In this document: positions 42,088 to 44,586 of the stretch, piece by piece | How the letters are laid out: every line of letters starts with the position of its first letter | Position numbering within the stretch: position 1 is the first letter of the stretch | From: Anaerolineae bacterium | Lineage (GTDB): Bacteria > Chloroflexota > Anaerolineae > JAAYZQ01 | Assembly (NCBI GenBank): GCA_034435455.1 | Contig: DAOTXL010000077.1 | Coordinates: 9,344 to 73,343, forward strand | DNA: 64,000 nt | Direction of reading: 5' to 3' | Notes under the pieces: model-generated | The model's database searches: none | Told to the model about the DNA's origin: nothing | The model's input: only the letters and a program-made list of their open reading frames with translations | Program-made: the position numbers and the translations under genes

Positions 42088-43544
42088 CTCACCGCGCCGG
42101 GATAAAAGTCCAACAGGCGCCCCAGGTCGTCGAACCAGCCGCAGGGACAGCCGGTGGGTTCCTCCCCCTCCATGATGACGAACGGCAAGAAGATGCTGTA
42201 CGTGCCGGTGGGCACAACGGAGGGGCGGAGGGCCCCCTCCGTCACCGTCGTCGGCCCGGAGGCGGCAGAGGGTCGCCAGGCAGGGCCGGCCATCTTGACC
42301 GGCACCCATTGCCCTTCGCCTGTAGAGCGGATCACCTGCAGGTAGACGATCTCCAGTTCCATTTCGACCTCGTAGATGCGTTGCAGGAGGCCGTCCGGGC
42401 AGTTGCCCTGGGTGAAGCAGTTGTCATAGGGGATGCCGGCAGGGATGACATATTCCGGCGGGGCCAGTTGGGTCGGATTGCGGAGTTGGGGCAGGAATTC
42501 GCTATTCGGCGCCTGGTCGGCGTCGCGCCAGGCCACTTCCAGGGGAAAGGCGGCGGAAAAGTGCAGGTCGCCGGATAACAGGGCTGTATCCCTGGCCAGG
42601 CGATAGGTGCCCGATGAGAGGCGGTCGGCATTCAGGTAGGGTGGTTTGCCGGACGAATCGGTGTAGGGGTCGCCGGGCATGGGCGGATACTTGAGCAGGA
42701 AATAGTTGGCCCCTGGCGGTATATTGAGCAGGATACGGCCATGCCGGTCGGGGTAGGTGGCGCGCAACTGGTCCATCAACGGCTGAAAGATGCCCAGCCA
42801 GCCGACACCGATGTAGGACTGGAAGGTGGCCTGCTGCGTGCCGGCCACGGAGGCTCGCACGGCGGGGGGGAAGTGCAGAGTAAAGACGCCGGTCAGGGGG
42901 TAGTAGTCCGCCCCTGGCAGCCTGATCCAGCAGCCGCTGTTGGGCGGGAGGGTCAGGCCGTCCGGTCCCAGGGGCAGGGGAAGCGGTTGTCCGACGCCAT
43001 AGTGATCCTCCGGGTAGCGGAAGGGTTGGGTGCTGTTGGCGATGGGCTGGCCGGTGCCCATGCGGGTGGTGTCCAGCCACCAGATCTGCTGTGTCACCTC
43101 CGCCCCGGTCACATCGAATACCCGCAGCGTGGAGGTCGGCACGGCGCTGGCCAGGTGGTCAAAGCGGGGCGGCTGGCCCAGGCAGCCGAACAGGGTCATC
43201 TGGTTGTTGGGCACTCCGGCCACAGTCATAAAACGCGGATAGATGGTGGTGGTGATGACCACCATATCGCCGTGGCGCGACCCTGCCTGGTAGACGACGA
43301 GGCCGGCCCAGTCGCTCCAGGACAGGATCGTGCCCTGCAGGTACTCATCCGGGATGGCGCCGACCAGCTCGACCAGGCTCAGGCCGCGCGGTTCCAGCCA
43401 GTCGGGCATGGCTGCCGGAGTGGGGGCGGCCCCGGCGACCAGGGCGACCAGGGCGGCCAGCAGCAGGGCCAGGCTGAGGAGCAGGTAGCGGCGGCGGGGC
43501 AGCCTGGTTTCGCCAGAGCCACACCCCAGAGGACACTCATTCAC
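42084..43544 (-). CDS. Secreted hypothetical protein with an IFLPFV motif near the C-terminus
   Basis: Signal-like RRRYLLLSLALLLAALVALVAGA; ends YSIFLPFVIMEGEEPTGCPCGWF...; function unknown. Confidence 0.65.
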   Translation of the reverse strand: MNECPLGCGSGETRLPRRRYLLLSLALLLAALVALVAGAAPTPAAMPDWLEPRGLSLVELVGAIPDEYLQGTILSWSDWAGLVVYQAGSRHGDMVVITTTIYPRFMTVAGVPNNQMTLFGCLGQPPRFDHLASAVPTSTLRVFDVTGAEVTQQIWWLDTTRMGTGQPIANSTQPFRYPEDHYGVGQPLPLPLGPDGLTLPPNSGCWIRLPGADYYPLTGVFTLHFPPAVRASVAGTQQATFQSYIGVGWLGIFQPLMDQLRATYPDRHGRILLNIPPGANYFLLKYPPMPGDPYTDSSGKPPYLNADRLSSGTYRLARDTALLSGDLHFSAAFPLEVAWRDADQAPNSEFLPQLRNPTQLAPPEYVIPAGIPYDNCFTQGNCPDGLLQRIYEVEMELEIVYLQVIRSTGEGQWVPVKMAGPAWRPSAASGPTTVTEGALRPSVVPTGTYSIFLPFVIMEGEEPTGCPCGWFDDLGRLLDFYPGAVR

Positions 43545-44586
43545 CTCGCACCTCGTTTCTGTGCTTCCCCAGCCAGAGCGTTTCTTGCAGTCGGGAGAGG
43601 TCGCGCCACATCTCGGTCAGCGCTTCGGTAACAGCGGCGTTGAAGCGGTTCTGCTGCTCGACGATAGGGTTGATGTACCAGCGCAGCAGACGACGGATCA
43701 CCTTTTGGGCCAGCGCCTCGACCTTGGGCCACAGCCCCGGCGGCCAGGTTGGCCAGGCGATGGGCAGGTGCGGGTTGACCATGGTGACGGTGCGCAATCG
43801 CTCCAGGACAAGGGGCACGCGCGACAGCGGGATGAGGGAGTAGTCCTGGTCTAACGAGTAACCGAGGGCGGCGAACTGGGCAGGGTAGGGCCCCTGCCGC
43901 AGCAGATCCACAATCATGGGCGGCAGTTCTGAGCGCCAGCCGCCCACCTGGCCTTTACGGAAGAAGCGGGGATCCATGCCGGGCATATGGCGCATCTGCT
44001 CAAAGGTCCATGCACCCGCCACATCCCTGATGCGTTCGAGGCGAACCTCCTGGATCGAGGCTGTCAGAACCTCCAGGGCAGCAACCGGGTCATGCTTGAG
44101 GTCTTCGTAGCGGACCACGCAGGACTTGCCGGAGCGTAGCCAGCTCAGCGAGATGTCAAGCGCAGTCGAAAAGCCATCCCGGACGTAGGCGGCGGTATGT
44201 TCGCCGATCGTCCCCTCGTCAAGGGCCATGATCGGTGCCCGATCGCGTTCCGAAAAGACCACCTCAGCGCCGAAGGCCCGCACATAGTGGAACAGGGAAA
44301 CGAGTACATCACACGGGTGGCGAAGGGTGGTCACCAGCACCACGCCGTTGCGCTCTGCCCAGTCAATCAGGTCCGGACGGGCGGCGTAGTGCTGGTGAGC
44401 CACCCAGCGTGGGCCCAACGCCTCGGCCTCGGCGACGTTGAATTCGATGCTGTTTAGCTCCCCGATCGGCAGATCGTAGAGGTTGGCCAGTAGATATTTG
44501 ATCCACGTGTTGCCAGTCTTGGGGGTGCTGACAATCAGGATCTTCAAATTGTCCGTGTTTGGCACGATTCCTGAAGTTGCGTTCAT
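43537..44586 (-). CDS. PAPS-dependent sulfotransferase with a C-terminal helical/coiled-coil tail
   Basis: 5'-PSB PKTGNTW, 3'-PB RHPCDVLVS, RYEDL, FFRKGQVGGW; tail KVIRRLLRWYINPIVEQQNRFN. Confidence 0.88.
   Translation of the reverse strand: MNATSGIVPNTDNLKILIVSTPKTGNTWIKYLLANLYDLPIGELNSIEFNVAEAEALGPRWVAHQHYAARPDLIDWAERNGVVLVTTLRHPCDVLVSLFHYVRAFGAEVVFSERDRAPIMALDEGTIGEHTAAYVRDGFSTALDISLSWLRSGKSCVVRYEDLKHDPVAALEVLTASIQEVRLERIRDVAGAWTFEQMRHMPGMDPRFFRKGQVGGWRSELPPMIVDLLRQGPYPAQFAALGYSLDQDYSLIPLSRVPLVLERLRTVTMVNPHLPIAWPTWPPGLWPKVEALAQKVIRRLLRWYINPIVEQQNRFNAAVTEALTEMWRDLSRLQETLWLGKHRNEVRGE

Follow-up and report, generated by a model that had tools for sequence, protein, structure and literature searches.

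A PAPS-type sulfotransferase with a portable helical module in an ABC-transporter-type glycan locus of an Anaerolineae bacterium

The window analyzed here, a 64,000-nucleotide stretch of contig DAOTXL010000077.1 (C77) from the draft genome of an Anaerolineae bacterium (GCA_034435455.1), encodes a sulfotransferase, hereafter ST, within a glycan-assembly locus of the ATP-binding cassette (ABC) transporter type, whose ATPase, Wzt, ends in a carbohydrate-binding module (CBM). By family, motifs and modeled fold, ST is an intact sulfotransferase of the 3'-phosphoadenosine 5'-phosphosulfate (PAPS) type, with sulfotransferase activity predicted. The last ∼80 residues form a portable helical module that is attached in this phylum to methyltransferases, to glycosyltransferases (GT) of the GT2 and GT4 families, and to ST. 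We infer, with middling confidence, that ST is a complex-docked, strain-variable tailoring enzyme acting on a lipid-linked glycan in the cytoplasm: a PAPS-dependent O-sulfotransferase that would most likely sulfate a polyprenol-linked cell-surface glycan before export, with a module that most likely serves to oligomerize it or to dock it to assembly machinery bound to the membrane. ST would thereby take the structural slot given in relatives to a wzt-adjacent methyltransferase. The sulfate would be a strain-variable decoration and not a signal read by Wzt, and the cap read by the Wzt CBM would more probably come from conserved enzymes encoded beside wzt, including a GT with a true coiled coil.

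The longest open reading frame (ORF) for ST, 43537-44610 (-), encodes 357 residues (P0001); translation probably begins at the ATG at 44586, which gives 349 residues and agrees with a 349-aa database protein (P0002) and with the N-termini of the orthologues. Residues 23 to 235 match Sulfotransfer_1 (PF00685, E 8.3e-12) with 45.5 bits against a Pfam cut-off of 22 bits. In addition to the two phosphate-binding elements listed in Table 1, the protein contains AHQHY (residues 71 to 75) and RHPCDVLVS (residues 97 to 105), the latter in the pattern RHPxDxxxS, so that the PAPS-binding set read from the DNA letters in the original prediction is indeed complete. Neither 14 orthologues nor 58 homologues show any variation at the key residues of these motifs, the latter sharing K31, G33, N34, W36, R97, S105, G220 and W225 without exception. 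Within AHQHY, H74 is invariant in the 58 homologues and H72 only in the 14 close orthologues, both being candidates for the catalytic histidine. We take these motifs to correspond to the PAPS-binding elements PKxGxxW, RxxxDxxxS and RKGxxGxW by reference to what is known of SULT1E1.

Structurally, an AlphaFold2 (AF2) model built from the 58-sequence alignment reaches a predicted local distance difference test score (pLDDT) of 88 overall and above 95 in the catalytic domain, which adopts the SULT fold. In a Foldseek search the best PDB matches are the cytosolic SULTs 5x2b (SULT7A1), 1aqu (estrogen sulfotransferase) and 3mgb (Teg12), at E ∼1e-8, with a probability of 1.00 to many SULTs. Neither a transmembrane segment nor a signal peptide is predicted in the ST protein, which would therefore act in the cytoplasm. 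The genome also encodes PAPS synthesis, a check named in the original prediction: ATP sulfurylase (C94:64966-65598, E 5e-99) and adenosine 5'-phosphosulfate (APS) kinase (C94:63015-63461, E 4e-62) both lie on one contig.

The C-terminal helical segment first noticed in the sequence is recovered by the AF2 model, in which KVIRRLLRWYINPIVEQQNRFNAAVTEAL falls within a helix spanning residues 293 to 356 (pLDDT ∼80-87). This helix is uninterrupted and follows a loop, NPHLPIAWPTWPPGLWP, that comes after residue 276; the whole tail is near-invariant among ∼20 orthologues. A heptad and hydrophobic-moment scan finds the helix amphipathic over its full length, with highly conserved polar residues; published rulers are longer. 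The coiled coil suggested for this tail thus survives as a single amphipathic helix without a clean heptad repeat, and the lack of a consistent register speaks against a generic coiled coil.

Instead, the tail belongs to an unannotated module of ∼65 residues, here called type A, that no Pfam model covers. Its core is RRLLRWYINPIVEQQNxFN, and the ST tail satisfies the extended consensus NPHLPIAWPxWPxGxxPK...RRLLRWYINPIVEQQNxFN with a hidden Markov model (HMM) score of 126.6 bits. Searches with the tail only return 219 proteins at E ≤1e-3 (word-indexed) and 234 cluster representatives (exhaustive). The module sits at the C-terminus of sulfotransferases and of GT1/GT4 and GT2 enzymes, and in its commonest placement at the N-terminus (approximately residues 50 to 115) of class-I S-adenosylmethionine (SAM) methyltransferases, several of which carry the JGI label 'O-antigen chain-terminating methyltransferase'; small stand-alone proteins hold one or two copies. 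The heads among 150 cluster representatives comprise 22 methyltransferases, 5 GT1, 4 GT2 and 4 sulfotransferases, the remainder being without a Pfam domain. Among the glycan enzymes of Chloroflexota, the tail of ST represents a new kind of portable module, one that is tied strongly to Wzt loci in the Anaerolineae.

About 21 ST-plus-tail orthologues are present in the protein database (P0003-P0025), and metagenome and genome scans with the ST query return relatives that share the ST domain only, without the tail. No other ST-plus-module fusion occurs in a 401-genome class sample, and a genome of the same genus, G479, has no match to either ST or the module. Within the genome studied here, a regular expression and the type-A HMM both find the ST tail as the only type-A copy, and ST is thus its sole module-bearing protein, which led us to reject hetero-module docking inside this genome. 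A diverged type-B module (...LWNxxxxKWYVRPLxxQQxxxN...), with a coiled coil frequently following it, occurs in the Wzt loci of relatives on GTs and on proteins of 170-185 residues (L186:3118-6027, L187:5745-7214, L186:12218-12769, L188:3145-3660); the type-B HMM finds none in this genome. A model of the two-copy protein P0187 (pLDDT 86, predicted template modeling score 0.73) shows each module as two short helices plus one helix of 50-55 residues, a fold that fits module-module packing without demonstrating it. Foldseek with this two-module protein finds no PDB analogue below E 0.4, and in the ESM Atlas it finds unnamed clusters only.

Genomic neighborhood analysis links the module to ABC-type export. 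In the window, the C-terminal binding domain attributed to Wzt by the original prediction is present (Wzt_C, in the 533-aa ORF 56557-58158 (-), probable start M92) and is the only Wzt_C copy in the genome; wzt lies 12 kb upstream of ST on the same strand. In a phylum sample of 401 genomes, 51 carry the module and 201 carry Wzt_C; when this genome is set aside, 47 of the remaining 50 module carriers also have Wzt_C. These tallies take in four genomes flagged as unpublished (G272, G173, G344 and G227), on which no individual statement depends. For more distant homologues of the catalytic domain, only ∼10 of 54 genome loci have a Wzt within 10 kb. At the level of the class, a Wzt-type ATPase or Wzt_C lies within ∼10-12 kb at 22-23 of the 27 type-A loci of Anaerolineae that were fetched. 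The module gene stands directly 3' of wzt in nine Anaerolineae loci, and all eight of these that were tested encode SAM methyltransferases with the module N-terminal. In G314, a compact wzt(Wzt_C)-wzm pair is divergent from four GT4 genes and a module methyltransferase; by analogy, this layout would reproduce the gene position of wbdD, and it offers the strongest support for naming the tail 'terminator-style'. Each examined Wzt locus of the class holds one strong type-A module enzyme, whose head varies among methyltransferase, GT2, GT4 and ST. In another family, a small module protein is encoded right after wzt.

The module is, however, not exclusive to terminators or to a Wzt context, as GT2 and GT4 enzymes bear it too, and so do small proteins encoded alongside GT4. 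In Chloroflexia-like genomes (L177-L180; G231, G295, G223 and G383), one- or two-copy module proteins are encoded beside a GT4 gene or overlap it, at distances of 60 kb to >1 Mb from any Wzt_C, and they look like a split form of a module-GT4 fusion found in G644. The 'chain-terminator-style' description originally given to the tail is accordingly supported in part: a homologous module does occur on wzt-adjacent methyltransferases, but it is shared with GT2, GT4 and small proteins far from Wzt.

Two genomes of the same family, G760 and G644, bear on the further proposal that sulfate is the terminal export signal. Both retain the syntenic order of Wzt, the GT1-family enzyme GT1a and a counterpart (∼44% identical) of the GT that bears a coiled coil in the window. 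The type-A module is carried C-terminally by a GT2 in G760 and N-terminally by a GT4 in G644; no orthologue of ST was found in either genome, and the fetched syntenic stretches contain no ST match. Different Sulfotransfer_1 genes are present in both, on other contigs, and the genome studied here likewise has a second, unrelated Sulfotransfer_1 gene (G000:C84:10455-10982), with matches in a similar profile range in the same-family genomes. The Wzt CBM of the window shares 67% identity with that of G760 and 60% with that of G644, and the ATPase domains are 62-67% identical, so that the CBM is conserved as much as the ATPase domain. In E. coli O8/O9a, by comparison, the Wzt CBMs diverge sharply where the cap differs. 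Such equal conservation points to recognition of a common epitope by all three transporters; this epitope would therefore be made by conserved enzymes and not by the variable module-bearing enzyme. Sulfate as the signal read by the C-terminal domain of Wzt is thus disfavored by the sequence comparison, and this part of the original prediction is not supported.

The strongest competitor to a strain-variable decoration nevertheless remains a chain terminator: ST would place sulfate on the non-reducing terminal sugar, halting polymerization, and the C-terminal domain of Wzt would read it, making ST a sulfate counterpart of WbdD. We consider this unlikely, and we attach equally little weight to its broader form, in which the module would be the docking handle of Chloroflexota terminators with an exchangeable head, the ST of the window capping with sulfate and the Wzt CBM reading the cap. 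The homology of the tail to the N-terminal module of the methyltransferases encoded right after CBM-bearing wzt in the nine Anaerolineae loci speaks for such a role, as does the presence, in each examined Wzt locus of the class, of one strong type-A enzyme with a varying head. Published terminators also combine a helical ruler with a CBM-bearing Wzt (PMC11231755), and the frameshifted look of the methyltransferase gene next to ST leaves fewer candidates for a methyl cap. Set against these points are the conserved CBMs of G760 and G644, in stretches where the module rides on GT2 or GT4 and ST has no match, and the occurrence of the module on or beside GT4 far from Wzt. Moreover, the helix of ST is just 64 residues long without a clean heptad, and the canonical coiled coil belongs to a different protein, a GT encoded beside wzt. 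The distance between ST and wzt is 12 kb, and the genes near ST include at least one for an intact methyltransferase (45963-46730). The literature searched describes neither a sulfate chain cap nor a sulfotransferase terminator.

Beyond the close orthologues, the catalytic domain has homologues with 35-55% identity in Chloroflexota, Opitutaceae, Bryobacterales, Thiotrichales and Burkholderiales, and some of these give the terminator reading further support. In a Burkholderiales locus (L060) the ST gene directly follows wzt, and in L021 it directly precedes a gene for a Wzt-type ATPase without a Wzt_C match; Wzt_C is found in 5 of 7 Wzt proteins near distant ST homologues. Four proteobacterial homologues end in a Wzt_C-like domain of their own (L060:9327-11483, L063:1799-3679, L064:9908-11560 and L058:6640-8286), above the Pfam cut-off in L060, L063 and L064 and below it in L058. 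We have not seen such ST-CBM fusions described. These ST-borne domains form a group of their own, at most ∼27% identical to the cognate Wzt CBM where compared, a divergence that fits recognition of substrate by one domain and of product by the other. The ST family is thus linked repeatedly to ABC-type glycan pathways, which keeps the cap hypothesis alive for some lineages.

Nearly all of the distant homologues (most of L015-L144, among them L019:9971-11734, L025:9788-11578 and L054:9965-11629) carry C-terminal extensions of 130-390 residues. In those inspected, a helical repeat of ∼100 residues that lacks annotation (…WLNxPA…TNLAxYIYxxRPDLQxAFPD…R..F..W…EY.L) is present once to three times; 'RPDLQ' repeats are absent from the genome of the window. 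In Thiotrichales, proteins of 1670-1800 residues fuse ST with radical-SAM/SPASM and Methyltransf_24 domains (L040:9845-14866 and L066:9614-15025). L040 adds a class-I methyltransferase domain; in the window locus, ST, methyltransferase and radical-SAM/SPASM functions are encoded by separate genes.

Several points weigh against the favored assignment of ST as a docked tailoring enzyme. The glycan acceptor of ST is a putative one, and we infer the docking or oligomerizing role of the module from its architecture only. With a single module-bearing protein in the genome, the docking partner would have to be another kind of protein or another copy of ST. The 60-67% identity between the CBMs does not exclude a change of ligand, and the glycans of G760 and G644 might also be sulfated, through the Sulfotransfer_1 genes on their other contigs. 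Finally, the exporter is not demonstrably whole, because wzm was not found in an assembly that is 94.7% complete.

We think it considerably less probable that ST acts on some other substrate (a glycolipid, nucleotide sugar, small metabolite or protein, for instance) and lies in a glycan locus only incidentally. Structurally, ST comes closest to sulfotransferases of small molecules and natural products (SULT7A1, estrogen sulfotransferase and Teg12), no acceptor-binding features can be assigned in it, and its gene is probably coupled to one for a membrane-anchored 486-aa protein without a family. The module, on the other hand, is common to glycan enzymes only, the entire neighborhood is devoted to glycan assembly, and several ST homologues in other phyla have Wzt or GT genes as neighbors or carry a fused Wzt_C-like domain.

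The poorest fit is a decaying or incomplete pathway in which ST is a leftover without a current role, a slim prospect given that the ST ORF is intact with all catalytic motifs conserved and that Wzt retains its Walker and signature motifs. What could be read as decay is the missing wzm, for which a search of the assembly with a relative's Wzm gave no match and a search of contig C77 with Pfam ABC2_membrane (PF01061) found none, together with the frameshifted look of the adjoining methyltransferase, the lack of an ST or module match in the same-genus G479, and an internal TAG stop in the wzm homologue of G760. Such absences and frameshifts may be assembly artifacts, because the genome is a draft of 140 contigs. 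In both same-family genomes wzm lies on a contig other than that of wzt (G644:C162:2639-3445; G760:C101:20806-21621). ABC2-membrane ORFs on contigs C41 and C10, which have no Wzt-like ATPase gene nearby, were rejected as the Wzm partner, as nothing in the assembly matches a relative's Wzm.

Table 1. Coordinates of ST, its elements and neighboring genes in the window
Feature	Position	Strand	Details
ST gene	43537..44586	(-)	349 aa from ATG at 44586; Pfam Sulfotransfer_1; orthologue N-termini align at MNATSG
SULT-fold catalytic domain	43906..44544	(-)	residues 23-235 of the 357-aa ORF; Pfam, AF2, Foldseek
5'-phosphosulfate-binding loop TPKTGNTW	44503..44526	(-)	residues 29-36; K31, G33, N34, W36 invariant in 58 homologues
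3'-phosphate-binding motif FFRKGQVGGWR	43933..43965	(-)	residues 216-226; G220, W225 invariant; F216, R218, G223 ≥90% conserved
C-terminal portable type-A module	43540..43785	(-)	residues 276-357; W/P-rich loop NPHLPIAWPTWPPGLWP, then long helix
Predicted single amphipathic helix, 64 residues	43543..43734	(-)	residues 293-356; DSSP on AF2 model; hydrophobic moment
486-aa protein, one N-terminal transmembrane helix	42084..43544	(-)	no Pfam family; start overlaps ST stop by 8 nt
Class-I SAM methyltransferase	44621..45804	(-)	Methyltransf_25 and _11, residues 176-307; frame broken after ...KAGGRTL
Second class-I SAM methyltransferase	45963..46730	(-)	255 aa; Pfam
GT1-family glycosyltransferase (Glyco_trans_1_4) with canonical C-terminal coiled coil	53544..55166	(-)	leucine-zipper-type match
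GT1-family glycosyltransferase directly after wzt (GT1a)	55061..56617	(-)	∼61% identical in same-family loci
Wzt ABC-transporter ATPase	56557..57885	(-)	ABC_tran + Wzt_C; Walker A, signature, Walker B present
Wzt_C carbohydrate-binding domain	56662..57036	(-)	residues 375-499; Pfam E 2.3e-27

The locus around ST and wzt (Table 1) contains 11 GT1- or GT2-family ORFs, a sugar nucleotidyltransferase, four SAM methyltransferases, two radical-SAM enzymes, GT-C-like membrane proteins and a MurJ-type flippase. Among these, the GT at 53544-55166 carries a coiled coil of ∼80 residues (approximately residues 448 to 526, nucleotides 53589-53825) and is, by its sequence, a candidate for an alternative ruler or terminator. 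A sequence search with the Wzt CBM finds only a marginal match, to the Kdo-binding (3-deoxy-D-manno-oct-2-ulosonic acid) CBM of R. terrigena (5hno, E 0.31), and for this reason no ligand is assigned to it. Immediately downstream of ST, the 486-aa protein is probably translationally coupled to it, because the two genes overlap.

Upstream of ST, the broken methyltransferase gene continues in an alternate frame that bears the conserved C-terminus and ends 35 nucleotides before the ST start; the break is either a true frameshift or an error of the draft assembly. Its N-terminal 175 residues (45300-45804 (-)) read as beta-rich and have no Pfam match, and they may form a glycan-binding domain. A 43-nucleotide copy of the ribosome-binding site and first codons of ST is found at 45909-45951 (31 of 43 positions identical to 44550-44592), with a score of 36, where 200 shuffles reach 24 at most. 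Lying between the two methyltransferase genes, this copy opens a short ORF of 20 codons and resembles a scar left when a cassette was inserted ahead of ST. The GC content of both methyltransferase genes (44621-46730) is 54-55%, compared with 64% for the window, and that of ST is 61-63%, near the local composition; the low-GC cassette is accordingly the methyltransferase pair and not ST.

ABC-transporter-dependent glycan assembly is known mainly from a few enterobacterial O antigens, with methyl, methyl-phosphate or Kdo as caps. The present analysis defines an unannotated, exchangeable helical module that in Anaerolineae marks an enzyme encoded beside a cap-reading Wzt and that carries methyltransferase, GT or sulfotransferase heads, and it thereby provides a handle on the recruitment of tailoring or terminating enzymes in monoderm and atypical envelopes. 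A terminal sulfate, if confirmed, would represent a cap chemistry new to these systems; with an internal one, the locus would still offer a tractable case of a sulfated surface glycan from bacteria other than cyanobacteria.

The closest functional parallel is WbdD, the chain-terminating kinase/methyltransferase with a coiled-coil ruler of E. coli O9a/O8 and K. pneumoniae O3/O5 (PMC3482155, PMC11231755). Like ST, WbdD is a tailoring enzyme of the cytoplasm whose catalytic head is N-terminal and whose C-terminal region is helical, encoded in a locus with a CBM-bearing Wzt, and the methyltransferases of relatives that carry the same module as ST lie directly after wzt, as wbdD does. The chemistry differs, being SAM-dependent methyl transfer plus kinase activity in WbdD and PAPS-dependent sulfation in ST; furthermore, ST has a far shorter helix that does not clearly form a coiled coil, and 12 kb separate its gene from wzt. 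Homology between the two sequences is not shown, Pfam and NCBIfam giving only the sulfotransferase domain for ST, and both terminal action of ST and CBM recognition of its product, as in WbdD, are disfavored by the conservation of the Wzt CBM. In published systems a canonical coiled coil marks the terminator or ruler protein, and ORF6 of K. pneumoniae O7 and WbbB of O12 are multi-module terminator-polymerases (PMC11231755). In these assembly proteins the terminator head, helical spacer and GT modules are redistributed among polypeptides, a modularity that recalls the enzymes described here, and the O7 terminator has an extra CBM, like the proteobacterial ST-Wzt_C fusions found here. Unlike these enzymes, the ST of the window is single-headed and lacks GT modules, and the element it shares with its relatives is a specific 65-aa module and not a generic coiled coil. 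The cytosolic SULTs (mouse SULT7A1, 5x2b; estrogen sulfotransferase, 1aqu; Teg12, 3mgb) share the fold and the PAPS-binding motifs with ST, but at ∼17-22% identity, with small-molecule acceptors and without a C-terminal module. Synechan of Synechocystis is reportedly made by a Wzx/Wzy-type pathway. The sulfotransferases of its gene cluster (xss, PMC8205485), by description, resemble ST in being bacterial and encoded inside a polysaccharide cluster, in their case for a sulfated extracellular polysaccharide.

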